NCBI GenBank assembly: GCA_963810765.1
Contig: CAWEOV010000024.1
Span: 345,906 to 409,905, forward strand
Length of the DNA: 64,000 bases
Origin: an uncultured Verrucomicrobiae bacterium
GTDB taxonomy: Bacteria; Verrucomicrobiota; Verrucomicrobiia; Chthoniobacterales; Terrimicrobiaceae
Direction: 5' to 3'
Positions 9,110 to 59,588 of the stretch are shown here, piece after piece (position 1 is the first letter of the stretch; each line of letters starts with the position of its first letter). Below the pieces are notes generated by a model that was given only the letters and a program-made list of their open reading frames with translations, was not told the DNA's origin and ran no database searches. The position numbers and the translations under genes were made by a program.

Positions 9110-10777
9110 GTGGGACTGGTTGCACTGTTATTTGTTATCGGGATGGGCACCGCCGTGGCAATCGAACCGGCGCGGTTCGCGGCGATGTATGACGACCCTG
9201 CGGTCTTTGAACATGCGCTCGCGAAAGAATCCGTCGCGCCGCCCGCCGGCCATCGCGTAACTGGGATCACCGTTCCGCACCACCTTGTGGCAGCGGACTT
9301 GATCGCCCGCGGCTTTTATGGCGCTTCAGGCAGCAACTACGAGCGGATCATTCTCCTTTCGCCCGACCATTTTAGGCGGTCGCGCCTGCCATTTGCGACG
9401 ACACACGGAACGTTCGAGACTGTCTTCGGTGATGTCGCGTGCGATGAGGTCGCAGTCGATTTGCTTTTGACAGCGTGTCATAAGGCCGAGGAGTCACGTC
9501 TCTTCGCAAAGGAGCACGGAGTGCACGCAGTGCTTCCCTTCGTCGCGAGGTTCTTTCCGAAAGCGAAGATTGTTCCAATCGCTTTGCGTATTGACTCGAA
9601 ACGCGAGGACTGGCTCGCGCTCGTGGACGCACTGACGCCCCTTGTCGATTCGAAGACGCTGATCGTCCAGTCTACCGATTTCTCACATTACCTCGATCAC
9701 GGCAAGGCGCGGCGTTGCGACCAGCAGACGATGAACGCACTTGCGCTTGGCGATCCTGAAGCGGTCACCCGCCTGCGCCAGCCCACTCACCTCGACTCGA
9801 AAGCCGCACAATTTGTCCATATGGCCTTGCAGCGACGTGTTCACAACGCAAGCCCGATCGTGATCGCCAACCGGAACTCCCAAGCTTATACAAGATTTCG
9901 TCTGGAACAAACCACTAGCTACATCATCCAGGTTTATGAGCCAGACGACCCGCCACCAGCGGCTTGGCCGTCCGGGCCGCGGGAATCCGTATGGTTTTTT
10001 GCAGGTGACGCATTTTTCGGCCGGGGTGTAGCTTCACTGCTTGCACAGCCGAGCCGCGCAGAAGCCGTGCGGAAGGAAGTCATGCGCATCACGCAGGAAT
10101 ATCCGCTGGCGGTGAATCTCGAAGGCGTAATCGTCAATTCTGTGCCGGACCCAAATCGCGTGAAGCGCGCGCTCGTCATGGAGAAGGAATTTACCCTTGG
10201 CTGGCTCAGGGCACTGAACGTCAAGCTTGCGGGTGTTGCGAACAACCACTCTCTCGATGGGGGAGAGGCGGGACTCGAACGAACCGTTCGCGCCCTTGCA
10301 TCTGCAGGCATCGCTTCGGTGCGTGATGGAGAGGTAATCGATGCCGGTCCGTTTCGCGCCGTCGCGATGACGGACCTCAGCAACGTTTCAACGCCGCACA
10401 CAGGCCGGATCACGCAGGAGGCTATCGCGCGACTGCCGCAACCGGAAGCGGACGTGAGGCCGTTGTTGGCCCTTGTCCACTGGGGGACTGAATTCCGGCG
10501 CGAGGCGACGCCGAGGCAAATCGAAGTGATGGATTGGCTAACAGATAGCCCCGTGACGGCGATATTCGGCGCTCACCCGCATGTGGATTCAGGCAGGCCC
10601 GAACCGTGGCGCGCCGGCAACGGGCTGGTCTGTCGCTCGCTTGGCAACTTCCTATTTGATCAGATAAACGGCTCCGGGGCACTCGCCGAAGTGAGGTTTT
10701 TCGAAGATAAGACGTTTGCTGTTCGATGGATTCCGGTTAGAAATCTCCTCAAGGCTGCTCCTACAGGTCCTCGATGA
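9110..10777 (+). CDS. fusion protein: Memo/AmmeMemoRadiSam-B-like N-domain plus CapA-family (PGA_cap metallophosphatase-like) C-domain
   Basis: N-half has ITVPHH, EHGVHAVLPF and STDFSHYL (Memo-type motifs). C-half has FAGDAFFGRG, VNLEG, VANNHSLDGGEAGLERT, VHWGTEF and FGAHPH (CapA-type motifs). Confidence 0.72.
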   Translation: MGLVALLFVIGMGTAVAIEPARFAAMYDDPAVFEHALAKESVAPPAGHRVTGITVPHHLVAADLIARGFYGASGSNYERIILLSPDHFRRSRLPFATTHGTFETVFGDVACDEVAVDLLLTACHKAEESRLFAKEHGVHAVLPFVARFFPKAKIVPIALRIDSKREDWLALVDALTPLVDSKTLIVQSTDFSHYLDHGKARRCDQQTMNALALGDPEAVTRLRQPTHLDSKAAQFVHMALQRRVHNASPIVIANRNSQAYTRFRLEQTTSYIIQVYEPDDPPPAAWPSGPRESVWFFAGDAFFGRGVASLLAQPSRAEAVRKEVMRITQEYPLAVNLEGVIVNSVPDPNRVKRALVMEKEFTLGWLRALNVKLAGVANNHSLDGGEAGLERTVRALASAGIASVRDGEVIDAGPFRAVAMTDLSNVSTPHTGRITQEAIARLPQPEADVRPLLALVHWGTEFRREATPRQIEVMDWLTDSPVTAIFGAHPHVDSGRPEPWRAGNGLVCRSLGNFLFDQINGSGALAEVRFFEDKTFAVRWIPVRNLLKAAPTGPR

Positions 10778-12429
10778 CGTAGGCCTCCTTCCACGAAAAC
10801 TTCCCTGGCACGAGAAAGTGCATTCGGCAACGCGTCGAGATGATCTCGCGACGGTCCGCAGTGGTCAGTCGAATTCGAAAGTTCTGGTAGCTTGAGACCT
10901 CGCTTGCGACCTGAAGCGTAAACCGGTCGTTCGCTCCGGGGGCCACTGTCCGCTTATAGGTGAAGGGCACGACATAGTCCTTTCCTTCGGTTCTCAAAAA
11001 AAGATCGTATTTTCCCGATGATGGCCCTCCTCCCGCCCCAAACTCCGGCCAGAACATGCTGAAGCACTTCACAAGGTGAAACTTCACACGCTTCATCTGC
11101 TTCAAACCAAAATAGTCCGTCCACGCGAGTCGGAATTCGCCCGCTACCAGGCCATACGCTGAGAATTGCTCGCCATCCGACACTACCAGGTTTGGTAATT
11201 TTCTCATTTCGCGCTTCGCGCGGAGCGCAACCGATTCTCGTGAGGGATCGTCGTCCTTTAGGCGTTCGATCGCCGCAATGGCGTCCGCGTCAATTCCGAG
11301 CGTTACCATTGCCCGCGCGAGAGAGAAGGTTGCACGCTCTGAGAACGACCCCAGCTTCTCCAGGAATTGGTAGTCCTCAAAGTTCGGTTTGGCATCGCGA
11401 GGGAGGATATTGAAGGCAACCTCGCAGTCATCTACTCGCCCTGAGCCAAAACTCACGATTTCACAGGTCACACCGCCGTGGAAGTAACTTGCATCCGCAA
11501 GTCCCAGAATCGGTTCAAAATCAGGAACGCTTTCCTCGACGACCGCCTCCGCTTGGTGAATCACCAGCTTTTCGCGTCCAGGGTTGAAGATACGGATGTC
11601 GAGAAAAACGGGAAAGACTCCGACATCAAAACTCTTGACCTCGCCCGATTCGGATTCGCCGATGACCGGTCCTCCTTTTGACCATGCAACCCAATAGGGC
11701 CAAGTGGGTTCTATCACGAGGATGTCGTCCATGAAGCGGCCGCCGTAGGTCATGAAAGATTGGTCGCCCGCTCCAATACCTTCGCTTCTGGAAAGGATAT
11801 TCCCATCGAGCGCATAGCGGCGCACATCCACGCCGAGAATCACGTACGGCGCTGCAGGAACAGGAGCGCCGCGGGGATTGGTGTCCTTGCCCGCCTTCCA
11901 GGTCGAGTTATAGCGGCGGCCATCCGGGTAAATCACGAGACCAGGACCGTCTCGCTCATCGGCAACGAAAGCTCCTTCGAAGACGGCCCCATCCGCGGAG
12001 ACATACCTGCCTGGCCCCTGCATGAGATCGTTCTGAAACGAGCCGCTATAGTAATCGCCGCTTGCGTACCAGGTACTCACCCTTCCCTTCCTTCACATTA
12101 TCGTGCCACTGCCCTGAGTATTTCGCCCCGCTGCGGTAGAGCGCAACACCCGCGCCGTGGCGCCGACCCGATTTCATTTCGCCTGAATAGACGACGATCG
12201 ATTCCTTCCGCTTTTGTGTGGGCTTGAACCATTCCAAGACGCCATTGCCCTCGGCTTCGTGACGGGAATTCACTTTGCCGGACCACGAAAAATCCAGTCC
12301 TCTCTCCCTCTCGGAGGCCCAGACGCGAACTTCCTCATCGAATTCAGATGCGGGATGGACCCTCCATTCCGCGCGAATCGACGCAAGTATGACAAAATAA
12401 ACAAGAGGTTGCAGGCGGCTAATTCTCAT
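10761..12429 (-). pseudogene. exported MORN-repeat protein, tandem paralogue 2, interrupted by a +1 frameshift
   Basis: ORFs 12046-12429 and 10761-12080 are collinear with the intact paralogue 12560-14239. The break is at GKGEY|WY.(S/N)GDYY, and alignment to the paralogue shows one extra G at about 12071-12072. Confidence 0.75.
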
Positions 12430-12559
12430 TCGAACGCATCGGTTGATGCTTTGCGAACAACGCTCTGATGATTGAGCGCCAAACGATTTCGATTGCTCCG
12501 GCTAGAGTTAGACTGAGCGAATAGGACGCCATTTCCGAGTATCGACAGCAACCGGATTA

Positions 12560-14239
12560 TTATTCCTCAATGACGTAACCTTCCTTCCACGAAAATTTAC
12601 GTGGCACGAGGAAGTGCATGCGGCATCGCGGCGAGATGATCTCGCGGCCGTCCGTCGTTGTCAACCGGATGCGGAAGCTCTGGTAAGTCGAGACTTCGCT
12701 GGCGAGTTGGAGCGTGAACCGGTCGTTCGCTCCGGAGGCAATGGTTCGCTTGTAGGCGAATGGCACCACGTAGTCCTTGCCTTCGGCTTTAAATAGAACT
12801 TCGTATTTCCCCGATGGCGATCCCTCTGCGGCCAACTCCGCCCAGAACAGGCAGAATTGCTTGTTAAACTGAAACTTCACGCGCTTCGTCTGCTTTGAAC
12901 CTAAATGGTCCGTCCATGCAATTCGGACTTCGCCTGCGACCAGGCCCGCGGCGGAAAATTGGCCGTCGTCCGATTCTACGAACTTTGGTAATTTCTTCAT
13001 CTCGCGGGTCGCGCGCGCAACCGATTCTCGTTTCGCCGCCGCCCGCTTCGCCTCTGCCTCCGCCTCTCGTGAGGGATCGTCGGAGAGATGTTCGATAGCC
13101 GCAATGGCGTCTGCGTCGATTCCGAGCGTTTGCAGCGCCCGCGCGAGCGAGAACGTCGCACGCTCTGAGAACGGTTCCAACTTTTCGATGAAATGATAAT
13201 TCGCAAACTCCGGCTTTGAATCGGGAGGCAGGATATTGAAGGCGATCTCGCAGTCATCCACGCGGCTCGAGCTAAAATTCACGATTTCGCAGGTCACTCC
13301 ACCGGGGTTCGAAGTCGCATCCTGGAGTCGCAGGATCGGTTCAAGGTCAGGAAAACTTTCCTCGACGACTGCTTCCGCTCTGCGAACTACCAGCTTTTCG
13401 CGGCCCGGGTTGAAAACGCGAATGTCGAGAAAGACCGGGAAGACTCCGATATGAAAATCCCGGGAGGCATCGTCTTTAGATACGACCGGCCCTCCCTTTG
13501 ACCATGCGACCCAAAACGGCCAATCCGGTTCGATCACGAAGTCTCCATCCGTCCAGCGGCCGCGGTACGTCAAGTAGTATTCGTCGCCACTTCCTGAGAG
13601 GATCTTCCCATCTAGCGCATAGCGACGCACATCCACGCCAAGCATCACGTACGGCTTTGCAGGAACGGGAGCGCCGGCGGGATTGACATCCTTGCCCGCC
13701 GACCATGTCGACGCGTAGCGGCGGCCGTCCGGGTAAATCGCAACCCCGGGGCCGTCCCGCTCATCGGCCGCGAACGTTCCTTCGAAGACGGTTCCGTCCG
13801 CGGAAACGTATTTGCCGGGTCCATGCATAAGGTCGTTGTGAAACAAACCGGCGTAGTAATCGCCGTTCGAATACCAGTACTCTCCCTTGCCTTCTTTGAC
13901 GTTCTCGCTCCATTGGCCGGAGTATTTCGCCCCGCTGCGTTGAAGCGAAACGCCCGTGCCGTGGCGCCGGCCTGCTTTCACCTCGCCCGTGTAGATGACG
14001 CTCGAGGCCCGCTGATGGTCCTCGGTCTTAAACCATTCCAGAACGCCGTAGCCCTCGGCCTCGTGGCGCACATTCACTTTCCCGGACCACGAAAAATCCA
14101 ATCCCCGTTCCTTGTCGGACGCCCAGACGCGGACCTCCTCCTCGAATTCGGACGCTGGATGCACCTTCCAGTCCGCATGCGCCAGGGTGCAAAAAATCGC
14201 AAACGTTACAGAGTAACAGATAAGGCGGCCGATTTTCAT
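12560..14239 (-). CDS. exported MORN-repeat protein with ~400-aa C-terminal domain of unknown function, tandem paralogue 1
   Basis: Start chosen at ATG 14239 (MKIGRLICYSVTFAIFCTLAHA, signal-peptide-like), which overlaps the stop of the upstream WD40 gene (ATGA 14236-14239). MORN units are YSGQW..N.KEGKGEYWYSNGDYYAG.F.NDLMHGPGKY. Confidence 0.85.
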   Translation of the reverse strand: MKIGRLICYSVTFAIFCTLAHADWKVHPASEFEEEVRVWASDKERGLDFSWSGKVNVRHEAEGYGVLEWFKTEDHQRASSVIYTGEVKAGRRHGTGVSLQRSGAKYSGQWSENVKEGKGEYWYSNGDYYAGLFHNDLMHGPGKYVSADGTVFEGTFAADERDGPGVAIYPDGRRYASTWSAGKDVNPAGAPVPAKPYVMLGVDVRRYALDGKILSGSGDEYYLTYRGRWTDGDFVIEPDWPFWVAWSKGGPVVSKDDASRDFHIGVFPVFLDIRVFNPGREKLVVRRAEAVVEESFPDLEPILRLQDATSNPGGVTCEIVNFSSSRVDDCEIAFNILPPDSKPEFANYHFIEKLEPFSERATFSLARALQTLGIDADAIAAIEHLSDDPSREAEAEAKRAAAKRESVARATREMKKLPKFVESDDGQFSAAGLVAGEVRIAWTDHLGSKQTKRVKFQFNKQFCLFWAELAAEGSPSGKYEVLFKAEGKDYVVPFAYKRTIASGANDRFTLQLASEVSTYQSFRIRLTTTDGREIISPRCRMHFLVPRKFSWKEGYVIEE

Positions 14240-17200
14240 TGAGATCGTTGTACGGGATGGTTGGGGACGGCAAGGCCGATGATCTGGCGAGCACGCGACT
14301 TCCATTTTGTTTCGTCCAGATCGAGGATACGGACCGTTCCGTCCTCCGAAGCGGAGAAGATGCGGCCGCCGTTCCACGCAACGGCGGCGACCGGACCCTG
14401 GTGCAGAGGCACCGCGAGACTAGGAACGAGCCCGTCAGTCTCCCAGATGCGCAGGTAGCCGTCCGAACCGGCAGCGGTGATTTTCGAACCGTCCTCCGAA
14501 TTCGCCAGATCGTCCAGAGAGCCGCCGACCGGCAGCGTGCGCGCGAGCGCCGCGCCGGATCGCACGTCCCACAACCGCACCGTGCCGTCGCGTCCGCAGG
14601 ACCCGAGGATCTTTCCGCCAGGCAGAAACGCGAGGCTCGAAACGCCGTCTCCGTGCCCTTGGCTGGCCTCCCGAGGAATTTTCAAGCCCGGCTCCGCGCC
14701 GCCCGCAACGTTCCAAAGCCAGATCTCGCCGCGCGTCGACCCCGCCGCAAGCGTTGCGCCGTCCGAACTCCATGCCAGCCCGAGCGCGTAATCCGGCATC
14801 CTTCCAATGAGCCGCGGCGACGCATTGCTATCCGGTTCCCAAACCTGCACGGCGCCGGTGTGACTGGATGATGCCAGCTCTTTACCGTCTTGCGACCAGC
14901 GCACGCGCCAGACGGTCTGGTCGTTCGCCGCTCCGGGCTCGCCGGGTTTCACGGATCGAACGGGATCGCGCGCCGCGCGCTGCCAGAGATGAATGTCGCC
15001 AGCCTCGTTACCGGAAGCAACTCTCTCCTGCCCGCGCTGCCACGCTAGGCAGAGAACGCGGCTGCCAGCGTGCCAGATTGTGCTGTTGGTGTTGTTCCCG
15101 GCATCCCAGGTGAAAATGTCGCCATGCTCGGAGCCTGCGGCGATTCGCATTCCATCCTCGGAGACGGTGAGTGAATGCAGCGGCGCGCCTTTATCATACC
15201 TGATCACCGGACCGAATGCCGCTGAGGGCCGCCAGATGCAAACCGTTCCATCGTTGCCGCCTGAAGCGAGGTGGTTACCTTCCGCATTCCACGCGATAGA
15301 CAAGACCGGCCCCTTGTGCGCCAGAGTACTTCAGGCGGCGGCGCCTGCGCGTCCGGTGCACCAGAGATCGCCCAAATCCGAACCGTACCGTCAGCGCAGG
15401 CGGCGGCGAGGCTCTGACCATCCGGACTCCAAGCGAGGTCCTGAACCCCGCCCGGCACGTTTGACAAGTTGAAAGGTGCCGCGCCCCTTTTGAGAATGGT
15501 GATGTTTCCATCTGCGTCGCCCGCTGCCAGCATAGGTTCGCCTTGCTTACTCCATGCCAGGCAGCGAATGTTCGCCTGAGTTGCCTCCCGCAGCGGCTGA
15601 GTTCCTCCAGTGCTAGAAATCGCAAAGACGCTTCCCGCTTCAGTCGCCAATGCCAATGTTCCATCCGACGCAAAAGCCAGTGCCGTCACGCGTTCTCCAG
15701 AGGATACGGCTGGCGCCGTCTTCCCGGGATCATCGGCTGGTCCAATGAAAACCTCAACCTGCCTTGCCGCATCGACAAAAGCGACCCTTTGCCCGTCGGA
15801 GGAGACCGCGGCGAGGCGCATGGGTCTGCCCGTTCCAAGCGACTCAGTCGCGTTCACGCCTTGCCTTAGAGCAATAACCTTCCCGTCTTCGCGCTGCGCT
15901 AGCCAAGTGCCGTCCTGGCGGCGGGCGATGCAAAGGATGGTCGGAGCCTCCTCGCTATCGGGAACAAATGAAGGTCCGGAGGCCTCACGGCTCTTCGCAT
16001 CAAGAAGTCGAACGGAACCTCCCGCCGCGGCCGCCAGGACATCGTCCGGCCCAAATTCCAACTCCTGCACGGCGCCTTCAAATCCGGTAAAGGAGGTTTC
16101 CAGCTGCGGTGGCGCCTTGGCAAGGGCGGAAAGAAACGCAGATCGTGTCGTGAAATCTGGATGGGTCGAGAAAGCCCGTTCGAGCAAGTCCAGCGCAGGG
16201 CGGATTTCGCCCCGAGCGAGGTCAAGCGTGGCTTGGTGGACTTGAAAATAGGCATCGGCTTGCGCTCGGCGTTCTGCCGCGCGCTGGTTGGCCAAGATGG
16301 CGATCACACTGCCGATCACCGCCAGGCCAATCAGGAGCGCCGCAACGGTCCCGGCGATCAAGCGGTTGCGCTTGCGCCGCCGCGCGTCTTCGTTCGCATG
16401 ATGTTTTGAGGCTTGGATGAAGCCTGCGGATTCCGTAGCCAATGTTCGCCCGGTTTGGGAAAGCAGCCAGAGAGCATCATCGAGCGGTTTGCCAGGCTGG
16501 ATGAGATACGCCGGGTTCCGGCCTTCCTTTTCCCAAGTGGCGCAAGCCGCTTCGACACGGGCGCGCTGCTTCAGAAACTCCTGGTTGGTATCGAACCACG
16601 CCATCGCTCTTGGCCAGCGCGTAAGGAGGGCTTCGTGGGCGACCGAGACCGTCCGCCGGCCCGCTGCGTCCGTGTCCGAAACAAGCAGCCGCGCGGAAAG
16701 CATCGCCGAGACCAGCTTTTCCGCTTCAGGCGTCGGCGCGACCTCCTCGGACTGAGCGCGGCGCCGGATCGGGACCGTCGTCTCGCCGCGATCTGTCTTG
16801 AAGTTCACGAGCGCGGAAAGAACCGCGTCGACTGCCTTGTCCATTCCGGCGCCGGCTCCCGCACTCGCTACCGCTTCATCAGCTTTTGCGGCGACCACGC
16901 CCTCGATCCCGCGAAATTCCAGATAATCCTCCCAGCGCAGCATTCCATCGCCGCGAGCCTTCTGGCGTTTGTAGAGTTCTTCGAGCGCGAATTCCAGCAA
17001 CGGAAGAACCTGCGGATCGGCTGAGGCAGCGTCGCGAAGCGCTTCGTCGAGGCCTTGCTTGGTTTCGGGATGAGCATCGAACCTTAGTCCTGCAGCTCGC
17101 GCCGGGCGCCGGATGATCTGGCCGAGTTCAACCGGCGCTGGTGGAGGGAGATGATAGGAGCCCGTGCCCTCGGCGAGAGCTAGAAGTTGAGAGAACTCGG

Positions 17201-18547
17201 CCAGTCGTGGAAAAAAGTCGCTCCGCATCGTGACAATAACCACGACTGGATTGCGCCGGGAAAGCGCGGCGAGCATCTCGAGAAATGCGTCCCGCTTCTC
17301 CGTCGAAACCCCCTCCGTAAACAACTCTTCGAGCTGGTCGATCAGCAGAACGAGGCGAGCGACTGGCGGACGCAAATTTTGCAATCGAAGGCGCAGTGCC
17401 GCCGCGTCTTCGGGCCGGTTCTCTTCTTCGCGCTGTCGAACGAGAGCCTCGATATCCGACCGCTGGCGCGCTTGTTCGCGCTCGGACGCCACTCGCAGAC
17501 CACTTCTGATCTCCTCTGGAATAGCTGTGTAGTTGGCCTCGAGCGAATAGGGCGTGGTTCCGTGGCCGGTTAGCTCCGGCAGGGCGGATTCGGCCAGCAG
17601 CGCTTCGCGAGACCGAGGAGCACGTCACCGCCCGCATCGGAAGGCTTCATTATTGCCCGACGCCAAAGCCCTGCTGCCCTCGATGACTCCCGGCTCGGTA
17701 AGGACGGGAAGAACACCGGCTCGGGCCAGGGAGGATTTCCTGAACCCGAGGCCCCCAGCACCAAGAGAAAACTACGAGGATCGTCCTTGTCAGCCTGCGT
17801 CTTGCGGAGTGCTTCAATGGCAGTGCTGACCGCCCCAGTGCGTCCAAAGAACATCGGCGCGTGTTCGAAATCGAAAGGCTCGAGGCCACGAAATGGAGAA
17901 CCTTTCGTCCATGCGGGCTTCTCGGGCGGCGCAAGTGTTCCAGGCGAGACGGCCATCCGCCTTTCAGCGACCTTCCGTAGCTTGATCTCGAAGAGATCCT
18001 GAAATTCGGCGATGGTGTGATATGCGGTGAACGAACCGACGAACGAGCCGTCCTCACTGTCCTTTGTCCACTGCTCGATGAATCGTTTGAGGGCACGCCA
18101 TTGCGCGATGCGTTCGTCGTGGACCTCAGGCGGTTCCGGCTGAAACGATGGAATCGTCTGGTTGATCCAGACGTGCAGCTCGGGCAATCCGTTGCGCTCC
18201 TTCTGACTCGCGAGAGCATGGGTGATTTCGTATTCGGTGCCGGAATTAGCTGGGGAGCCGTTCGGAAGCCGCTGCGAGCCGCCAAGCCGCGAGCCGAGAC
18301 GCGACCAAAGCAAACAGAGGACGACGTCGAAAGTCGCTGTGTTCGGAATCTGCTCCTGAAACGATTTCGAGAAATCGAATGGCTCGTATTCCCAGAAATA
18401 CGCGTCGAGCACGATGCGACCGCTGAACTCCGCATTCAGCCTGGCGATCGCTTCGCGCGCGACCCGGCGTTCGTGAGCCACGTCTCCGGGACTACTCACA
18501 AAAAGTGATACCCTCGAGACATTCAGACTGTGTTTGTCTTCATCCAT
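14236..18547 (-). pseudogene. DUF4062-like domain - P-loop STAND NTPase - single TM helix - WD40 repeat protein, broken by at least 4 frameshifts
   Basis: Three collinear ORFs (17570-18547, 15204-17492, 14236-15303). N-domain is VSLFVSSPGDV...NSGTEYE. Walker A GASGSG(K) is broken near 17736-17738, with further frame changes near 17668-17680, 17600-17608 and 15318-15328. A TM helix LIAGTVAALLIGLAVIGSVIAIL (~16290-16360) follows RRRKRNR. WD40 blades include GTVRLWD and GTVRIWA. Confidence 0.75.
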
Positions 18548-18692
18548 AGCCAGGAGCCGACTGCCCTATTTCGTGCCTTCTAGCAAAAAAGCCAGGCCTT
18601 CGCCATCAAATCCTCCTCGTCCCCCGTGTCCTCGAATATTTCCAGTCCAATTCCGCCTCAATGGAATCGAACCCCTGATCGTCTTACAGCCG

Positions 18693-20733
18693 CTATTCGT
18701 TTTTACCGCGTGAACTCTGATGCGACGCCTCGATGAGCTTGTAGCGTTCGAGGTCCGCTCGTTTGAGTCCCTCGGGCCGGTAACGATGCACGACTCGATC
18801 GAGCATGACTTCGATCCCCGTGAAATCGCCGACCGGTTCAAAGACGGCGGGGTCTTCCAGGAGCGCAAAGACGCCAGGGAAGTCGATTTTCAAAGCTGTC
18901 GGAAAGCCGTTGTTAACGTAAAGAGGTACCCCTCGCTCGTCGGCTTCCCTCATCAAGGAGGCATATTGTTCAACGTGAGAGCCCGGCGGACTCTCGGATC
19001 GTAGACGTAGGGCGGCTGCGTGGTCGCCGCGGTGATGATTCTTAGATTCTTTGGCGCATTCGGGATCCAGACTTGGGCGTGTCGCGAGGACGGATTCGCG
19101 ATAGCGTTCCGCGCCCCACGTGAGCAAGAAATGCCGGGCGGGATGCGAGAGCACGGCGAAGGCGCAAACCAGCACAAAGGCGAGCAAGGGCCCCGCCCAT
19201 CGCGCGGAAGGAAATCTGCGCAGCGGTGAGAATGCCCAAAATGCCCCGGCCGCAACCATGACCGCCACACCCTGCAGCATGAAGCCGACGTACCATTCCA
19301 TGAGCATCTTGTGTCGAAGCACTGCGTAGCCATAAGTCAGGATTCCCGGGAAGATGAGGACGGCAACGAGCCAGCGTGCTCGGGGTTCGACGATCCACAA
19401 GCGGAAGATTCCCAACGCGAAGAGGCCCACAGCAAGAACAACGGCAATGCGAGAAGGCGACCGGATGCGCGTTCGCATGGGGAAGATATTCCATGTAGGG
19501 CGTGGCCGACAGGCCGCTCCTGGTCCAAAGGCTTCCCGTAAGAAACAGAGAACCGACGTTCTTCAGGAAAAACGCGTGCCCGTCAAAATCGCGCACGCTT
19601 CTCAAATAGCTAAGAAGGCCCGGCACACACGGCAGGAACAACTGCAGGAACACGATCCCTGCGAAGGTCCCTGAAACCAGCCATCGCAGAGTGAGGACGT
19701 TCCGCGCGGACGAGAATCGTTCCTCCGTGAAAAGACTGACCACGATGCAGACGTTCAGGATCAGGACCGTGAATAGGGTCGGCGGCCAGGTGTAGAGAAG
19801 AGCAAAATTCGCCATCGCAAGCGCGATCCACCACCTCCATCGTCCTCTATCCAACGCATAGACGGCCAAAAGGCAGCTGACGGGGATCAACAGTGCTACC
19901 AATGCGTAACCTCGCGCTTCGGTTGTGAATCGCAGGTGCCAAGGGTGAATGGCAATGAGCCAGGCCGCCAGCGCACCCTCCCACGCAAGGCCGAAGCGCG
20001 CAGCCAGTAAAGCGACCACGCCCACGAGGAGGATTCCCGACACGTAACTGGGCAAACGGGCTGCGGCCTCGCTGAGTTGCAGCCCGGTGGGCCGCGCCAT
20101 GGTCCTCCAGGCAGAGTGACTCAATCGCGAAAGGATGCTTTGAAATATGTGATTGGTCGTCCCAGAGTTCCAGAGCGTAACTTTCCACGGCAGTTTCTTA
20201 ACCACGACTGTCCCGTCGTCTTGGACGCGATGTGCTCCAACGCTGCAGCGGCGCACGCAATATTCCTCGTCCTCCCAAAGGCTCTGGCCCAGCCGGGGAA
20301 ATCCCAGGATCGCGCATGCGGCCATTGCTCCGCCAACGCAGAGGAAGAATCCTTTCGGAAGCCTGGGCGAGGATTTTTCAGAAGAGTGCGCCGGCAACGG
20401 CCGCGTCCACCACCCAGTCGTCAGCGCCAGGCAAGCCAGCGGAACGAGATTAATGAGCCCGGCCCACCAGGAATAGACTCGGACAAAGTCCTCCAACTTG
20501 CCAAGCTGCGGATGCTCCCAGGGCTTCGGAGCAAGCAGCAGAGCAATCGCAACGAAGGCCATCAGCGCCAGGAGGATGAGTCGCGTGACCAGCGCAAATC
20601 GACTTCGCTCAGGTTTCGTCTTCACCGCAAGCATTGGGGGCAATACATTCTTCTCTAAATGCTTCGACATGTCAGCGGGGAAAGTACCAACGATGCACTG
20701 AATGAAAAGCGGAACGGCTCGGCGCAATGACAC
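18693..20733 (-). CDS. GT-C-type (GT39/ArnT-like) polytopic membrane glycosyltransferase, probable frameshift near 19479-19482
   Basis: The first-loop motif GFPRLGQSLWEDEEY is typical of GT39/PMT_2 proteins. After ...PYMEYLPH the 563-aa frame turns into Arg/Cys-rich nonsense, while the +1 frame (ORF 18693-19478) continues with TM helices. The junction is at a GGGG run. Confidence 0.55.
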
Positions 20734-23057: not shown

Positions 23058-23844
23058 ATGGAACTGCATATCAATAAAGACACGCAGCTCTGCATGTCGC
23101 TCGCGGCGCGTCCGGGAAATTTTGGAACCCGATTCCATAACTTCTTATACCGCGAACTGGATCTGAACTTCATCTACAAGGCCTTTACCACCCGTGATCT
23201 CGCCGCTGCAATCGGCGGAATCCGCGCGTTGGGAATTCGCGGATGCGCCGTTTCGATGCCATTTAAGGAGGCATGCATCGATTACCTGGACGAATTGGAC
23301 GCCTCCGCAAAGGGCATCATGTCGGTGAACACGATCGTGAACACCGACGGGCTATCTGAAGGCCTATAACACGGACTACACAGCCGTTTCTGCGCTCCTT
23401 GGATCGAGCGGAATCCCATCCAATGTTGACTTCGCGCTGCGGGGCAGCGGCGGCATGGCGAAGGCCGTTGCTTGTGCGCTCAGGGACGCGGGATTTACCA
23501 ATGGTCTGATTGTGGCGAGGAATGAAGCCGCGGGGACCGCGCTGGCCCAGCAATATGGTTTTCAGTGGAAGAAGGAACTTACGAATGAAAGGCCTGGATT
23601 GCTGATCAATGTCACTCCGGTTGGAATGGCCGGTGGCGCTGAGTCGGATCAGCTTGCGTTTTCGGAGGAGTTGGTTCACTCCGCTCAGTTCGTATTTGAT
23701 GTCGTCGCACTTCCCCCGGAAACACCGCTGATTCGACTGGCGACTTCGCTGGGAAAGAAGACCATTACGGGCGCGCAGGTCATCGCGCTTCAAGCTCTCG
23801 AACAGTTTGTACTCTACACCGACGTTCGCCCGGTGCCGAATTGA
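23058..23844 (+). CDS. shikimate/quinate 5-dehydrogenase-family protein, 1-nt frameshift at GGG 23349-23351
   Basis: ORFs 23010-23369 and 23455-23844 join as ...SVNTIVNTDG|YLKAYNTDYTA... (the family NTD motif). A Rossmann part LRGSGGMAKAV follows. Removing one G restores the frame. Confidence 0.75.
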
Positions 23845-23924
23845 TTGAGAAGGCCGCGGCATTTGCGCGTTCGTAACTTCCTTCAATCGCAGCCATCGCC
23901 TCCCCCAAGAAAGCACAGACTCTC

Positions 23925-24948
23925 ATGACGAGCACAGCGCGCAACGGAATCCTGGCAGGCGGGAATTGGATTCTCGATCGCACCAAGATCATCGACGTTT
24001 ATCCGGCGCAGGACGCGCTCGCAAACATCTTCGCCGAGACATCGTGCAACGGCGGCGGGGCCTACAACGTGCTTATTGATCTGGCGCGGCTCCAGGCGCC
24101 TTTCCCGCTGGCCGCGGTCGGGCTCGTTGGCGACGACGCCGCCGGCGAGTACATCCGCAAGGACTGCCAGGCGCATCGCATCGATACCCGGCAATTACAT
24201 ATCTCCAAGGAAGCGCCAACGTCCTACAGCGACATAATGACGGTGAAATCCACCGGACGCCGGACGATATTTCAACAGCGCGGCGCCAACGCGTTTCTCG
24301 ACGCCTCGCACTTTGACTTCGCACAGAGCGACGCGCGCATCTTTCATCTCGGCTATTTGCTGTTGCTCGACCGTCTCGACCGGCCCGATCCGGCGTGCGG
24401 AACTGTGGCGGCGGCCGTGCTTCAGCGCGCGCAGCAAGCCGGCTTCAAGACGAGTGTTGATGTGGTGAGCGAGGATAGCGACCGGTTCGCCGGAATCGTT
24501 CGTCCTGCGCTGAGGTTCTGCGATTACTGTGTCTTGAACGAATTTGAAGCCGGGCGCACGACAGGCATCCAGATCGTCCGCGAGGGAAGAATTGACATCG
24601 GGCGCTGCCCGAAGAGCTGCGCACGAACTGCTCGCCGCCGGTGTGCACGAGTGGGTCGTGATCCATTTTCCTGCAGGCGCGATCGCCGTCGGCTCCGGCG
24701 GCCAGGAACTGGTGCAGGCAAGCATTAACATGCCGCAGGCGCGAATTGCGGGAACGCTTGGCGCCGGAGACGCGTTCGCAGCCGGTGTCCTCCTGGGCCT
24801 GCACGAGGAGGTCCCAATGGACGTCGCCCTCACCTATGGCGTCTGTGCAGCCGCCGCATCGCTCACAGACCCGAACACTTCGGATGGAGTCAAGCCACTG
24901 TCGGAGTGTCTGCGGTTCGCTGAAGAATTCGCTTACCGCACCATCTGA
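23925..24948 (+). CDS. PfkB-family carbohydrate kinase, 1-nt frameshift at GGG 24600-24602
   Basis: N-part GGGAYNVLIDLARL and C-part GTLGAGDAFAAGVLLGL (PfkB signature 2) lie in two frames that overlap over 24544-24728. Confidence 0.8.
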
Positions 24949-54697: not shown

Positions 54698-56836
54698 CTA
54701 GTCCCCATAGAATGTCCTATTTTGCTTGTTCATTTGGATGAGTCGCTCGCAAGGAGCAAATTGGGGTTCTCCGCCTTCGTTGAGCCGCCGAAGATCCTCA
54801 GTGATTATGCCAATGCCGGCGCCATCAGCGTAGCGCAACGGACCGCCCCGGAATGGGGCAAAACCGGTTCCCATGATCATTGCGAAATCGACATCCCTCG
54901 GATCTTCCACAATGCGCTCCTCAAGGCACATGGCAGCCTCATTGACCATTAAAAGAACCATGCGCTTCCGAAGTTCCTCCCGGGAGGAGCCTGCCTTGTC
55001 CTCCCTCTCCCGAAGTCTCAGAACGACGGGATTGACGCCGGCATGGCGACCTTTTCGATACTCATAGAATCCCTTGCCGCCTTTCCGGCCCTTGAATTCC
55101 GCCTCCGGCAGTTGCGCAAAAATCCCCGGCATCTTCATTCGGTCCGGAAATGCCGCACAAAGTGTCTGCGCGACATCGGACGCGACATCGAGCCCGACTT
55201 CGTCCAGCAGCCGCAACGGACCCATCGGCATGCCAAAGTCGAGCATGCTCTCATCCAGCGCCCTGACTTCTGCGCCCGCTTCAAACAAGCGCACGGCTTC
55301 AAGCAGATACGGTAGCAGAATGCGATTGACCAGAAACCCTGGTCGATCCCTAACGACTACGGGGAGCTTGCCGATCCGCTGCACCAAAGCCACAGCGGTA
55401 TCAACCGCAACGTCCGAAGTCAGATCCGCTCGAACGACCTCGACAAGTTTCATACGGTGCACCGGATTGAAGAAGTGAAGGCCAACGATGCGTTGAGGAT
55501 GCTGCAAGCCGCGGCTGATCTCCGTCACCGAGAGCGCGGAGGTGTTCGTGGCAAGCAGCGTTTCCGGACGCGTCCGCTCTTCGAGGTCGGCGAAGATTTT
55601 CTTTTTCAATTCCATCTTCTCCACTGCAGCCTCAACCACCAGATCGACTGACTTCATTTCCACGGGCACCTCCGCCGGAACGATGCGATCCATCCCGGCC
55701 TGAGCTTCCGCGGCAGAGAGCAACCCTCGACGCCGGGCATCGGAAAAGAGCTTTTCCGAGCGCTGCAAGCCTTGGGCTAGCTGGCCGGCGTCTATATCTC
55801 GAAGCAGAACGTCCATGCCGCGCGAGGCAAGCCACTGGGCAATGCCCGAACCCATAACGCCAGAGCCAACCACCGCAGTCTTCCGCAGCAATTCCGCTTT
55901 GGGTGCCGGCAGGTGCTTCGCGCGATCCTGGAGAAAGAAGATCCGGATGAGGTTTTTGGACACCTCGGTGTCGGCCAGCCGGAGAATCACCTCTTTCTCA
56001 GCCGCAAGTGACTGCGGAATGCTGCGAACAAGGGACTTCGCCGCCACGTCAATTGCGCGGAGCGCAGCGGGGTAATGCCCGCGGGTCTTCTTCAGTACCG
56101 AATTTCTTGCCAGCGCGGAAACTGCCTGCCACGCGGGAATCCAGGCAAGGCGCCGAAGGTCGCGCAGGCGCGGTTTTCCGTTGGTCACGAAGCGTCCGGC
56201 TAATACGAGCAAACGCTCTCGCGGCGCCATGCCATCAATGAGGCCGAGGGCCATCGCCTTCGAAGCCGGCATCAACTCGCCGCGCAGGATCACCTTCAAG
56301 GCGCGCGGCAGGCCCAGCAGCCGGGGCAGGCGCGTCGATCCGCCCCATGCCGGAATGAGGCCAAGATTCACCTCAGGAAGGCCGATCCGCGTGGATCGTT
56401 CCGGGCTCGCAACCCGATAGTCGCAGGCCAGCGCCAACTCGAGCCCTCCGCCCGCGCACGCGCCATGAATCGCGGCGACCGTCACGCTCTTAAGCGAGGC
56501 AATCCTGGCGAAAGTTTGCTGGCCGAGGTCCACCAGTTCTGCCCGGCTTTTCGTGCCGGCCAGTTCCCTTAAATCGGCTCCAGCGATGAAGACGGACGGC
56601 TTCGCGCTCTCGAAGACCACGCCACGGAAGGATTGCCCGTCCAGTTCATCAAGAATCTCCGCAAGCGCGTTAAGGGTCTTGGTATCCAGCACGTTGACCG
56701 AACTTCCAGGCCGGTCGAATCGAACTAGCGCTATTGCGTCTTCACCGGTGTGCAGCTGCACGGATGCCGCGTTGGAAGAAGAATCAGCCTTTTGGCCCGT
56801 ATTGGTCGCTGGGGGTGGATGGATTGCGGCATTCAT
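54698..56836 (-). CDS. bifunctional enoyl-CoA hydratase / 3-hydroxyacyl-CoA dehydrogenase (FadB/FadJ-like)
   Basis: Crotonase part FIAGADL...AAIHGACAGGGLELALACD. NAD fold VVGSGVMGSGIAQ. HFFNPVHRMKLVEV. ATG 56836 overlaps the thiolase stop (ATGA). Confidence 0.9.
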   Translation of the reverse strand: MNAAIHPPPATNTGQKADSSSNAASVQLHTGEDAIALVRFDRPGSSVNVLDTKTLNALAEILDELDGQSFRGVVFESAKPSVFIAGADLRELAGTKSRAELVDLGQQTFARIASLKSVTVAAIHGACAGGGLELALACDYRVASPERSTRIGLPEVNLGLIPAWGGSTRLPRLLGLPRALKVILRGELMPASKAMALGLIDGMAPRERLLVLAGRFVTNGKPRLRDLRRLAWIPAWQAVSALARNSVLKKTRGHYPAALRAIDVAAKSLVRSIPQSLAAEKEVILRLADTEVSKNLIRIFFLQDRAKHLPAPKAELLRKTAVVGSGVMGSGIAQWLASRGMDVLLRDIDAGQLAQGLQRSEKLFSDARRRGLLSAAEAQAGMDRIVPAEVPVEMKSVDLVVEAAVEKMELKKKIFADLEERTRPETLLATNTSALSVTEISRGLQHPQRIVGLHFFNPVHRMKLVEVVRADLTSDVAVDTAVALVQRIGKLPVVVRDRPGFLVNRILLPYLLEAVRLFEAGAEVRALDESMLDFGMPMGPLRLLDEVGLDVASDVAQTLCAAFPDRMKMPGIFAQLPEAEFKGRKGGKGFYEYRKGRHAGVNPVVLRLREREDKAGSSREELRKRMVLLMVNEAAMCLEERIVEDPRDVDFAMIMGTGFAPFRGGPLRYADGAGIGIITEDLRRLNEGGEPQFAPCERLIQMNKQNRTFYGD

Positions 56837-58083
56837 AAGCGTTCGAGCCAAAGCGCGGCCCCCTGCCCTCCTCCCACACATAAACTGACGAGGGCCTGCC
56901 GGCCGTTGCGGCGTTGCAGTTCCTTCAGCGCAGTGAGAACCAGGCGCGCACCGCTAGCCCCCACCGGATGGCCGATCGCTATGGCGCCTCCATTGACGTT
57001 CAGACGCTCGTCCGAAATCTCGCCAATGCCCTCATCCTTCAATTTTCGCAGGACCGCGAGAACTTGCGCCGCAAAAGCTTCGTTGATCTCGACGAGCTCC
57101 GCATCGTCAACGGTTAAATGGAGCCGCTCGAGCAGGCGTGCGATCGCGTAGACCGGACCGAGCCCCATACGGCCAGGATCACAACCCGCGTAAGCGAAGC
57201 CGCGAATGGCGCCCAGCGGCTCGAGGCCAAGGCTGCTCGCGGCGGCCTCTGTTCCGATCAACAACGCTACTGCGCCATCGGTAATCTGCGAAGAATTTCC
57301 CGCTGTGACGGTGCCGGTTTCCTTTTCAAAAACTGGCCGCAGCTTCGCCAAGGCTTCCAGGGTCTGGTGCGGGCGCACGCCGTTGTCGCGCACGACCGCA
57401 ACGCCGCGCGCCGTGTCGTATGCTGGAACGATCTCCTCTGCAAACTTGGCTTCCGCCTCGGCGGCTCGTTGGTGCGACCGCAATGCAAAGGTGTCTTGCG
57501 CCACGCGTCCAATTTCGAATTCCCGCGCCAGGACCTCGGCGGTTTCCCCCATATTCAAGCCGCTCACGGGATCACTCAGTCCGAGCCTTAAAGCTGGGGT
57601 GGGCACAAAATCCCGCGGGCGCAGCGCAGAGACGGCGCGGGCTTTCGACAACAAGCTCTTGCCTGAAGCCAGGGATGCGAACCTCTTTGTTGACTGTTTG
57701 GGAAAGAGCATCGGGGTGCTCGACATGCTCTCAACGCCTCCCACCAAGTAAAGTTCGCCCTCGCCGGATTGAATCCGGAGCCACGCCTGCGTGACCGCTT
57801 CGATTCCCGAAGCGCAATTGCGCTGCACTGTAAGGGCCGGCACGTGCTTCGGAACTCCCGAACGAAGCGCGGCCACACGCGCGAGATTCAGCGCATCAGC
57901 TGGCTGTGCCACGCAACCGAAAATCACTTCCTCGAGCCGAGCGGGATCGAGGGCAGTCCGAACCATGATGCCGACCATGGCGGCGCGCGCCAGATCCGCC
58001 GCTCCCACCCCGGCGAGACTGGTTCCCGCCTTCGTGAAAGGCGTGCGCACTCCGGCGATGACCACTACCGGGCTCGCCTTCAT
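56833..58083 (-). CDS. acetyl-CoA C-acyltransferase (thiolase)
   Basis: Start MKASPVVVIAGVRTPFTKAG at 58083 (ATGA overlap with the upstream gene). Active-site regions VQRNCASG, NEAFAAQVL, NVNGGAIAIGHPVGASG and CVGGGQG. Confidence 0.9.
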   Translation of the reverse strand: MKASPVVVIAGVRTPFTKAGTSLAGVGAADLARAAMVGIMVRTALDPARLEEVIFGCVAQPADALNLARVAALRSGVPKHVPALTVQRNCASGIEAVTQAWLRIQSGEGELYLVGGVESMSSTPMLFPKQSTKRFASLASGKSLLSKARAVSALRPRDFVPTPALRLGLSDPVSGLNMGETAEVLAREFEIGRVAQDTFALRSHQRAAEAEAKFAEEIVPAYDTARGVAVVRDNGVRPHQTLEALAKLRPVFEKETGTVTAGNSSQITDGAVALLIGTEAAASSLGLEPLGAIRGFAYAGCDPGRMGLGPVYAIARLLERLHLTVDDAELVEINEAFAAQVLAVLRKLKDEGIGEISDERLNVNGGAIAIGHPVGASGARLVLTALKELQRRNGRQALVSLCVGGGQGAALWLERL

Positions 58084-59588
58084 TTCTCGGGAGAGCTCGC
58101 CACGCTGGCCGAACGGCTTTCGGTCTTGAATCGCCGATCGACCACCTTTTGCTCCTTGAGCTTTTCCCCCACTCCTTGAAGCCGGCGCATCTCGGAATCC
58201 GTATGAAACATGATGCGATTTGCACGCAGTTCGGCACGCTCGAAGAGGCATCGCACGATCTCCTTCGACGCGGAGCTCTCCTCTCCTCCGTCGCCCAGAG
58301 AGATATGCAGAACGAGTTCATCCACCTCCATGGGATCATCATTAACCTTTCGCAACTCGATTTGCCAGGATCCAACGCTCGGCAGATCGTCAAGGACGTG
58401 CTCGAGCTCATTGAGGTCGACAAGCGTTCCCTTGATCTTGTCGAGCTGCATTTCGCGGACATCCGACCGCCGTGATATCCTCCCGACAAGGCGTGGCATG
58501 ACGCGACCGCAATGCGGACACGGCTCATAGGTCACGCCGCCCTCGACGACGTCGCCCGTCCGATACCGCAGGACGCATGACCCGCGCGCCTCGAGCGAGG
58601 TAAAGACAATCTCGCCCGGTTCGCCGTCACCTTTGAGCGCGCCCGTCTCAGGATCGACGATCTCGACAATCCCTAGATCGGGATAGAGATGGTAGCCGGA
58701 CGGTTCGGCGCCCACTGGAAACAGGCACTCGCACCACGCCATTTTCGCCTCGGTGAAGCCGTAGGTCGAAACGACGGTGACGCTCTTCGAATGAAGACAA
58801 GAGGCGGACTCCTGCAGTTTGCGTCGCAAACCTTGAGGCACCTTTTCTCCACCGAGCACGATTCCGCGCAGATTGTCGCATCGGACACCGTCCAACGCGG
58901 CTTCGCGCAGGACGTGATAGACAAAGGTCGGCATACCGATCAGCACGTCTGGATTTATCTTTCGCAGCATGCGGATGTTGCCGTCTGTCCCCACAGTCTT
59001 TCCTCCCCCTGAGCTAAGGAGGAATACACCGAATTCGGTGCCCGCGTAGTGTGCCTGCCAGAACGCGAGATGAGGGGCAAAGGGGAACATGCTCAACATT
59101 CGATCTCCCAGCCGTGCGCCGGCAAGCTGCATCATACGAAAACCCGCCGCTCTAAGCACGGCCAAATCGTGCGCAGTGTAAACGAACGGCATCGGCTCGG
59201 CTGACCGGCCCGTGGTACTCGTCATCAGGATCGGAAGAAACTCTCTCTCCAGCTCGCGCTTTGCACGGCTCGGCCCGCGGAGAAGTCCGCGTAAAATGGT
59301 AGCGGGACGGCGCGCCAGTTGGTGTGGATCAGGAGTGATGATGAATTCCCTGGTGCGTTCAGATCCCCCCGACAAATCGCTCTTCGACGTGAAGGGGATC
59401 CGCTGAAGATCCTCCAGAGTCTTGATATCCCGCCAATCCAGTCCGTGCTTCGAAAACACTTCCCGATAGCGCGGATGGAAGGGCAGGACCACATCGCGCA
59501 AATAGGCGCGAAGCCGGCTCGCCTGCAGATTGCGAAGAGTTTCTCTAGGCAGCTTGTGCCAGGAAGTTGTGAGGCGGTTGGCGTTCAT
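58080..59588 (-). CDS. PaaK/F390-synthetase-like adenylate-forming CoA ligase
   Basis: The N-terminus L.NLQ..RLR.YL...V.PFHP.YRE.F...G....DI.TLEDL..IPFT.K.DL and the TSGTTG-like LMTSTTGRS match phenylacetate-CoA ligase family proteins. Confidence 0.82.
   Translation of the reverse strand: MNANRLTTSWHKLPRETLRNLQASRLRAYLRDVVLPFHPRYREVFSKHGLDWRDIKTLEDLQRIPFTSKSDLSGGSERTREFIITPDPHQLARRPATILRGLLRGPSRAKRELEREFLPILMTSTTGRSAEPMPFVYTAHDLAVLRAAGFRMMQLAGARLGDRMLSMFPFAPHLAFWQAHYAGTEFGVFLLSSGGGKTVGTDGNIRMLRKINPDVLIGMPTFVYHVLREAALDGVRCDNLRGIVLGGEKVPQGLRRKLQESASCLHSKSVTVVSTYGFTEAKMAWCECLFPVGAEPSGYHLYPDLGIVEIVDPETGALKGDGEPGEIVFTSLEARGSCVLRYRTGDVVEGGVTYEPCPHCGRVMPRLVGRISRRSDVREMQLDKIKGTLVDLNELEHVLDDLPSVGSWQIELRKVNDDPMEVDELVLHISLGDGGEESSASKEIVRCLFERAELRANRIMFHTDSEMRRLQGVGEKLKEQKVVDRRFKTESRSASVASSPEK

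Follow-up and report, generated by a model that had tools for sequence, protein, structure and literature searches.

An NLR-like DUF4062-nSTAND1-WD40 locus in a Terrimicrobiaceae genome: repaired reading frame, predicted membrane topology and possible role

Can three consecutive open reading frames (ORFs) be pieces of a single gene, and if so, what kind of protein would that gene encode? The question is raised by a 64,000-nucleotide stretch of DNA from an uncultured Verrucomicrobiae bacterium of the family Terrimicrobiaceae (GenBank assembly GCA_963810765.1, contig CAWEOV010000024.1, positions 345,906 to 409,905), here called the window. Three ORFs lie head to tail on its minus strand, at 17570-18547, 15204-17492, and 14236-15303. 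A preliminary description made from the letters of the sequence had joined them conceptually into an ordered series of modules: a DUF4062-like N-terminal domain, a P-loop NTPase of the STAND type, a single transmembrane (TM) helix, and a WD40 propeller expected to lie outside the cytoplasm. The sequence features named there were all confirmed at their positions, and the E-values of the hidden Markov model (HMM) matches exclude that the domain matches arose by chance. With moderate confidence, the locus is taken to be one Terrimicrobiaceae gene for a bitopic NLR-like STAND receptor of about 1,437 amino acids, with the WD40 repeats outside, an NADase-type output, and indels that are likely to be assembly errors.

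The repaired gene and its modules

When the three ORFs are compared with Pfam as they stand, positions 1-45 of the nSTAND1 profile are found at the end of the first ORF and positions 90-378 at the start of the second (39 and 212 bits, respectively), and WD40 repeats make up the end of the second ORF and all of the third. This pattern points to one gene that has been cut in pieces. If one base is added or removed at each of four sites, the four frame pieces join to an ORF encoding 1,437 amino acids, with no stop codon, that spans the whole gene (14236-18547, minus strand). The repair is independently validated by an orthologue on an NCBI contig from a Terrimicrobiaceae metagenome-assembled genome (MAG), P0091/L087, which is uninterrupted and is collinear with residues 105-1432 of the repaired protein, the identity being 79% over 1,329 amino acids. 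Complete members of the same cluster, N-terminal domain included, are 1,419-1,458 amino acids long and are named Terrimicrobiaceae. The conceptual joining of the ORFs is thus borne out, and intact orthologues do exist.

A DNA alignment with L087 contains exactly four net frame-shifting indels, each of 1 bp, where at least four breaks had been foreseen, three of them close to the Walker A motif. The first (17736-17738, at about 17738) is a -1 change of four A's to three (GGAAAATCC to GGAAATCC) in the Walker A lysine codon, the second (17674-17678, at about 17676) a +1 change with the extra base shown in GAGGG[C]AGC, and the third (17602-17604, at about 17603) a -1 change, GCGAA-GCG. The fourth (15321-15328, at about 15323), also -1, falls between WD40 blades. 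All are given for the minus-strand gene. The first three lie within 135 bp around Walker A, and in an alignment of five sequences these three are unique to the window. No exact match to the 325-aa ORF product of the window was found on record. Scans of metagenome contigs, using protein patterns and a Walker A DNA pattern that allowed either three or four A's, gave no orthologue, and the 32 DNA matches were unrelated P-loop genes. A promoter and terminator scan of 10400-19000 gave nothing above the expectation from shuffling, and no tRNA was detected when the window was scanned.

Once the frames are mended, the NTPase (amino acids 217-680; 16509-17899, minus strand), which holds three of the four breaks, matches Pfam nSTAND1 (PF20703) end to end. 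Positions 1-378 of the 379 in the profile are covered, at 297 bits and an E-value of 4e-88 (cut-off 27.1 bits). The Walker A motif (17715-17758), LGASGSG(K)SSLARAG, is interrupted because the lysine codon, here in brackets, lacks an A; one added A restores GASGSGKS, and four out of four relatives have GG(A/G)AAATC at this place. Walker B, LVLLIDQLEE (amino acids 399-408; 17325-17354), is found inside the nSTAND1 match. The NTPase of the preliminary description has in this way been assigned to a defined family. The NACHT profile (PF05729) gave 16.3 bits with the repaired protein, below its cut-off of 26.7, and PADLOC-DB v2 gave no system match, only marginal ones to mad8 (6.8e-4), PDC-S60 (1.3e-3), and mad3 (2.1e-3). 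By every sequence criterion that could be tested the gene is a member of Pfam nSTAND1, with what appears to be a divergent DUF4062-type head. It shares with the nSTAND1 NTPases of conflict systems both the full-length profile match and the arrangement of a variable head, the NTPase, and C-terminal repeats. The sister proteins carry TIR, caspase, CHAT, trypsin, or winged helix-turn-helix (wHTH) heads, whereas the head in the window is DUF4062-like. To our knowledge, no nSTAND1 member has been tested experimentally. The family is named in the article by Kaur, Iyer, Burroughs and Aravind (eLife 2021, PMC8195603).

The N-terminal domain (amino acids 1-216; 17900-18547, minus strand) is regarded as a divergent DUF4062-type domain with a TIR-like fold and a predicted NADase activity, on the basis of homologues, motifs, and an AlphaFold2 model. 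It contains the motifs LFVSSPGDV (amino acids 15-23), FWEYEP (51-56), and SGTEYE (102-107). The assignment is routed through the homologues because the copy in the window has no direct match; DUF4062 (PF13271) was matched by 24 of 63 homologues at E<=0.01, the best at 7.6e-6. In the alignment of the 63 homologues F16, S18, S19, D22, E26, R27, W52, E53, D74, the W81-S-R motif, G85, and E107 are nearly invariant (F16 in 60 out of 60, W52 and E53 each in 62 out of 63, and E107 in 61 out of 63). The last of these is the residue that the preliminary description had called the invariant Glu. The AlphaFold2 model (predicted local distance difference test 85.7, predicted template modelling score 0.82) has five parallel strands, at residues 11-18, 45-51, 75-80, 123-129, and 172-176, which alternate with five helices in β-α order.

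Two types of bacterial defence proteins are relevant for this domain. KpSwz (Swarozyc) has been found, like human TEP1, to hydrolyze NAD+ in a glutamate-dependent manner, the residue in KpSwz being E97, and its domain is built from a parallel sheet of five strands and from five helices (2026 preprint 10.64898/2026.05.01.722283). In Eva01 (Evangelion), encoded by the Staphylococcus aureus plasmid pMW2, F11 is conserved, W51-E52 form a Q/W/E motif, and E87 is the putative catalytic residue; the protein is reported to give defence and NAD+ depletion (2026 preprint 10.64898/2026.06.25.731849). When Eva01 (WP_000072390.1) is aligned to the family profile, it agrees motif by motif: F11 corresponds to F16, W51-E52 to W52-E53, and E87 to E107. 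The five-fold β-α topology and the positions of the phenylalanine, the W-E pair, and the glutamate of T-E-x-E are thus also found in the window, and the model has the same topology as the KpSwz domain, as would be expected from the TIR-like fold proposed earlier. However, the Swarozyc and Evangelion proteins are short, encoded by single genes, and equipped with a small auxiliary sensor domain, without NTPase, TM helix, or repeats, and their sensing is cytoplasmic (of the phage portal for KpSwz). The protein of the window, in which nSTAND1, a TM helix, and WD40 come after DUF4062, falls outside their definition. What weighs against the assignment of the head is that the window's own domain matched nothing in Pfam or NCBIfam, in Pfam even at E<=10, that Foldseek found only generic flavodoxin-like and weak TIR-STING matches in the PDB (TM-score about 0.33), and that an hhalign comparison with the single Eva01 sequence was statistically weak (E 0.15). 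When the family profile was searched against PDB sequences, it gave spurious coiled-coil-like matches only, and no relative with a solved structure.

C-terminal to the NTPase, the basic stretch RRRKRNR (amino acids 723-729; 16362-16382) is directly followed by a single predicted TM helix, LIAGTVAALLIGLAVIGSVIAILA (amino acids 730-753), the two together occupying 16290-16382 on the minus strand. They were recognised from hydrophobicity and conservation. The helix has 24 uncharged residues with a Kyte-Doolittle value of 2.8 over 19 residues, and it is flanked by seven lysine and arginine (K+R) residues before and three after. A juxtamembrane linker, probably helical and under purifying selection, fills the space up to the first blade (amino acids 754-830; 16059-16289, minus strand). 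The rest of the protein, from about residue 831 to 1437 (14239-16058, minus strand), is a WD40 array (PF00400) with E-values of 9e-40 in the third ORF and 7e-14 at the C-terminus of the second. About 14 blade ends were counted, which is enough for two seven-bladed propellers. The ATPase and the NAD+-consuming enzyme are required to be cytoplasmic, and with a single span the C-terminal repeats would then be placed outside; the charge bias across the helix agrees with this orientation. The protein is thus predicted to be bitopic, N-in/C-out, with an extracytoplasmic WD40 array beyond the inner membrane. It counts against this topology that it is derived solely from hydrophobicity and the positive-inside rule.

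Neither the helix nor its orientation is a matter of one locus. An exhaustive HMMER search with the N-terminal domain gave 2,971 representative proteins, of which 1,795 reached E<=1e-10. An nSTAND1-like NTPase directly follows the N-terminal domain in 96 of the 97 representatives of at least 1,000 amino acids. TM helices were surveyed in the 85 of these 97 that have the WSRLG motif, counting K+R in 15 residues on each side. A strongly hydrophobic segment, with a median length of 21 residues, was found in 71 of these (about 84%), some 623 residues after WSRLG. In the 71 proteins the mean number of K+R is 5.9 before the segment and 3.1 after, and the N-terminal side has the larger number in 64. 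The basic cluster plus helix of the preliminary description and, as a prediction, its positive-inside orientation are therefore found again in the family. Behind the helix a median of 704 residues follows, and their content varies among relatives; WD40 was found in 33 of the 97, and others have TPR, FGE-sulfatase, repeats of the Sel1, ankyrin, or RHS type, a C-terminal PDZ_6, or nothing recognisable. Also RefSeq nSTAND1 proteins from cultured bacteria with other heads have an arginine-rich cluster and a TM helix about 425-465 amino acids after Walker A. Such are a wHTH-headed protein from Mesorhizobium (WP_244731063.1, L089), a TIR-headed one from Mycobacterium sp. JS623 (WP_015297623.1, L090), and one with a trypsin-like head from Streptomyces (WP_317928306.1, L092). 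A Nostoc nSTAND1 protein (L091) is without the helix. The TM helix is not peculiar to the locus in the window; both the order of the modules and the helix are kept in most full-length relatives.

Among species-representative genomes the DUF4062-headed family is found in Verrucomicrobiota, Steroidobacteraceae, Woeseiaceae, Gemmatimonadota, Planctomycetota, Acidobacteriota, and further groups, and most of its ORFs there are intact and encode 1,200-2,000 amino acids. These genomes were scanned with the pattern D[LIV]V[IV][CSG]ILWSR, outside of which the window's own DVVLCLLWSR falls. A word-indexed search that returned only fragments of at most 374 amino acids had hinted at a conserved split after Walker A. 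This idea was rejected because the exhaustive search and inspection of the loci showed the short matches to be contig ends or frameshifted long-read contigs.

As a separate observation, Chthoniobacterales has a subfamily of DUF4062-nSTAND1 proteins of about 1,690 amino acids, mostly without a TM call at the threshold used, the genes of which are followed by a gene for a YHS-domain protein of about 187 amino acids with a signal peptide (L018, L020, L029, L033, L034, L038, L040, L047, L050, L059, and L075).

Secreted partners and the proposed mechanism

Directly downstream of the STAND gene lies an intact gene (12560-14239, minus strand) whose 559-aa product has MORN repeats (Pfam MORN E 4e-20) and a signal-peptide-like N-terminus, MKIGRLICYSVTFAIFCTLAHA. 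The ATG of this gene overlaps the STAND stop codon (ATGA), and the orthologous loci L086 and L087 show an identical 4-nt overlap of STAND and MORN genes. As far as sequence can tell, the overlap shows that the STAND gene is translationally coupled to the gene for the putatively exported MORN protein. A second signal-peptide MORN paralogue follows in tandem (10761-12429, minus strand), with a frame break at about 12070-12257.

Genes for apparently secreted proteins are a recurrent neighbour of the family. A gene on the same strand starts at -150 to +300 nt of the STAND stop in 29 loci, and in 17 of these 29 it encodes a signal-peptide-like N-terminus, compared to 85 of 517 control ORFs from the same loci (odds ratio 7.2, p = 9e-7, using a heuristic detector). 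Downstream of the TM-STAND gene, Steroidobacteraceae and Woeseiaceae have a gene for a secreted protein of about 490 amino acids with C-type-lectin-like motifs (WVGG, GEPNN) and no Pfam match (L037, L042, L048, L049, L054, L060, and L073), and in some other loci lipoproteins of about 1,900-2,000 amino acids are encoded downstream. Several of the modules found behind the helix in relatives, namely RHS, Sel1, and PDZ_6, are of types that are common in exported bacterial proteins. These modules and the secreted downstream gene products would fit with repeats that are located outside. A gene for a patatin-like phospholipase is present in the 10-kb flanks of 28 of 79 loci, in some cases immediately next to the STAND gene, as in L002 (2328-3515) and L003 (1343-2515). 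In L002 it comes before two tandem STAND-cluster genes, with stop and start codons that overlap.

A mechanism can be proposed from these elements. The DUF4062 effector and the nSTAND1 ATPase would be cytoplasmic, with the WD40 propellers outside the inner membrane. There, the WD40 sensor would bind a periplasmic or envelope ligand, which might be presented by the secreted MORN protein or bound jointly with it. Since the membrane keeps the sensor from folding back on the NTPase, the signal would most likely be passed on by ligand-driven clustering, with the nSTAND1 modules forming oligomers on the cytoplasmic side. The DUF4062 domains would in this way be brought together and NAD+ hydrolysis switched on, and the outcome would be NAD+ depletion, with growth arrest or abortive defence. 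The coupling across the membrane is speculative and is the weakest step of the proposal, since the classical autoinhibition by the sensor cannot work there. Neither does the genomic context speak for defence; no defence island surrounds the locus, and its neighbours are housekeeping genes.

A serious rival, of rather low probability, is that the protein is not an immune suicide switch at all, but a receptor for envelope or environmental signalling. The periplasmic WD40 array, perhaps with the MORN protein, would then sense a cue, either nutritional or from the cell surface, with the DUF4062 domain making a nucleotide-derived signal or serving as a scaffold and not depleting NAD+. Such a role would be in keeping with the synteny of the locus among the Terrimicrobiaceae, between housekeeping genes and away from any defence island, and with an evolution that is purifying and apparently vertical (a ratio of non-synonymous to synonymous substitution rates, dN/dS, of 0.134). 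PADLOC gives only marginal matches and no system, and the downstream partners in other clades are secreted proteins of a binding type, either with a YHS domain or C-type-lectin-like. Furthermore, the wHTH heads found with an equivalent TM helix in nSTAND1 resemble membrane-bound regulators of the ToxR type. Against a signalling role, all DUF4062 proteins characterised so far hydrolyze NAD+, those from bacteria as part of abortive defence (10.64898/2026.05.01.722283; 10.64898/2026.06.25.731849). The residue equivalent to the catalytic glutamate is retained in the window, the TIR, caspase, CHAT, and trypsin heads of the sister proteins are typical of conflict systems, and patatin-like genes are found in the flanks of the loci as described above.

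Origin of the frame breaks

The preliminary description called the gene fragmented. The term fits the sequence, though probably not the organism itself: there is good reason to think that the four indels are assembly errors and not features of the living gene. Single-base indels are found also in neighbouring genes. Compared to intact orthologues, the shikimate dehydrogenase gene aroE (23058-23870, plus strand) has indels at 23348 (+1) and 23832 (-1), and the gene for a pfkB-family kinase (23880-24945, plus strand) has one at 24600 (+1). The out-of-frame segments of these two genes still encode sequences with 86-96% amino acid identity to the intact orthologues (L085, L081, and L082), and the indels thus point to local assembly errors. 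A gene for a 640-aa multi-span membrane protein with a weak PMT_2 glycosyltransferase-like match (18699-20683, minus strand) is split at about 19430 into two overlapping ORFs, and is intact on L081 and L082. Both this gene and the second MORN paralogue (at about 12070-12257) likewise carry a 1-bp indel in comparison with intact orthologues.

In the STAND gene every lesion is a single-base indel; neither a nonsense codon nor any larger out-of-frame indel is present. Compared with L087, dN/dS is 0.134 overall, with 0.06 for the N-terminal domain, 0.09 for the NTPase, 0.08 for the TM helix and linker (amino acids 701-830), and 0.20 for the WD40 array. The local background of five indels in 7.2 kb predicts 3.0 in the 4.3-kb STAND gene, where four are observed (P(>=4) = 0.35); if the background is taken over all of the 14.9 kb compared, 1.45 would be expected (P = 0.06). 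Genes outside about 10.7-25 kb look intact. An exact match to the RpiB of the window places it on a contig of 0.2-1 Mb, a length that suggests a long-read assembly of a soil MAG. Other loci of the family in long-read MAGs (L001, and the MFD contig_N records L057, L058, and L075) are similarly fragmented.

The possibility that the gene is a genuine recent pseudogene is unlikely, even if some observations speak for it and against assembly errors. In that case the four indels would be real, the lineage would be in the process of losing a costly or self-toxic NLR-like gene, and the hits would be concentrated at the P-loop. The clustering of three of the four indels within 135 bp at Walker A is not predicted by a uniform error rate (simulated p = 0.011). 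Moreover, related contigs have lesions of their own in the STAND gene at the syntenic locus, with neighbouring genes that are called intact. Three loci from JGI contigs of related Terrimicrobiaceae populations (L081-83) have two frameshifts and a 6.9-kb deletion, equivalent to the segment from 17862 to 10971 in the window, which removes most of the STAND and MORN genes and leaves a remnant of the N-terminal domain fused to the C-terminus of MORN. An identical 274-aa product is found on five JGI contigs, and the three loci examined represent three samples. In two Logan loci from two runs (L085/L086) frameshifts at amino acids about 195 and 280 are shared, and an identical 260-aa product is present on six Logan contigs, the two loci examined being from two runs. 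One of these shared frameshifts is a 1-bp deletion, CCCGAG-CGG (L085:7742-7763 and L086:1179-1200), 19 nt downstream of the position of the Walker A indel in the window. This lesion, close to the P-loop in a sister lineage, is independent. A JGI fragment, P0037, is nearly identical to the window over about 60 amino acids (one difference) and diverges after RLPDG.

Still, no relative shares the indels of the window, the indel rate in the STAND gene is in line with the local background, and aroE, with two indels, and pfkB are broken in the same manner with their out-of-frame parts well conserved. The lack of nonsense codons and larger out-of-frame indels, the low dN/dS, and the intact orthologues in sister MAGs also speak against decay. 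Whether the indels are errors or real, the STAND gene kept its function up to the very recent past, and sister genomes have intact copies. Programmed frameshifting or phase variation at the A-run was considered and rejected; the four sequence contexts differ, the frame is uninterrupted in the intact orthologues, and the A-run comprises no more than 4 nt.

Two further observations concern other genes of the window. The ORF at 9110-10777 (plus strand) encodes a 555-aa protein of the PGA_cap family. Its counterpart in L081-83 has 187 amino acids that align to two separated parts of the protein, and it seems to carry an internal deletion. An apparently intact and unrelated cluster for fatty-acid oxidation is found at 54698-61536 (minus strand), and encodes a FadB-like protein of 727 amino acids, a thiolase, and an AMP-binding enzyme, the ORF of the last aligning with no more than the second half of its Pfam profile. 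A gene for a 663-aa protein with a patatin domain adjoins the cluster.

Comparison with known switches and significance

In the characterised STAND and NLR switches (Apaf-1, plant and animal NLRs, Avs, bNACHT, and MalT) the ligand is sensed in the compartment of the NTPase, and the sensor folds back and keeps the NTPase off. The protein of the window has in common with Apaf-1, Avs, and bNACHT the STAND switch, the C-terminal repeat sensor, and the N-terminal effector for death or defence, and a ligand-induced oligomerisation would be expected in both cases. The sensors of Apaf-1, Avs, and bNACHT are, however, in the same compartment as the switch, where direct autoinhibition is possible, while a membrane would lie in between in the protein of the window. 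It gave no PADLOC match to the Avs or bNACHT models. The logic resembles that of the eukaryotic proteins TEP1 and NWD1, which together with NWD2 and NPHP3 have DUF4062, NACHT, and WD40 or TPR. These are soluble proteins with a NACHT module and no TM helix, in contrast to the nSTAND1 module and TM helix found here. When it comes to topology, ToxR, RseA, and PknB/PknD all have a cytoplasmic output and, beyond a single TM helix, a C-terminal sensor outside the cytoplasm (in PknD a β-propeller). This is an analogy of topology only, as their output modules are unrelated to that of the window protein.

That the hydrophobic segment is no span, or just a monotopic anchor, and that the WD40 array is cytoplasmic as in Apaf-1 or Avs, is very improbable: WD40 (PF00400) domains are mostly known from cytoplasmic proteins, 14 of the 85 full-length relatives and the Nostoc protein keep similar kinds of sensors without the segment, and the N-in/C-out topology is a prediction from sequence, but the segment has a median of 21 uncharged residues in the family and a Kyte-Doolittle value of 2.8 in the window, its position about 623 amino acids after WSRLG is strongly conserved, the excess of K+R is on the N-terminal side in 64 of 71 proteins, signal-peptide genes are enriched directly downstream, and PDZ_6, RHS, and Sel1 modules follow the helix in relatives.

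A sensor across the membrane was called unusual in the preliminary description. This holds in comparison with characterised STAND and NLR proteins, but not within nSTAND1, where the NTPase and the repeats are as a rule separated by a TM helix. We know of no characterised NLR, in any kingdom, that carries signals across a membrane. The literature was searched specifically for a TM helix that separates the NTPase from the sensor in STAND proteins, and nothing was found. Such a helix is not mentioned as a family feature in the accessible parts of Kaur 2021 (PMC8195603), Kaur 2020, and the paper on diversity-generating retroelements (DGR) that names nSTAND1; in the accessible part of the DGR paper, the sensor of one NACHT-type target is predicted to be periplasmic.

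The locus itself is ordinary, since thousands of homologues are found in the databases, and its architecture is an undescribed variant of the NLR theme. The copy in the window adds little, as fragmentation, its most striking feature, is probably technical. It is the idea at the level of the family that is worth testing. Tentatively, and with less confidence than for the locus, most nSTAND1 proteins may be widespread and so far undescribed transmembrane NLR-like receptors, with WD40, TPR, FGE, PDZ, or RHS sensors outside, NADase, TIR, protease, or wHTH heads inside, and often a secreted partner encoded together with them. The DUF4062 head has now been shown to be an NADase both in bacterial defence and in human TEP1, and the intact orthologues are therefore directly testable. 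The conserved TM helix between switch and sensor would demand a coupling mechanism different from that of the known switches. If the idea is true, a STAND switch would carry extracytoplasmic danger or contact signals inward, for instance from phage adsorption or ejection, predators, or neighbouring cells, and the family would represent NLRs that watch the periplasm or the cell surface.

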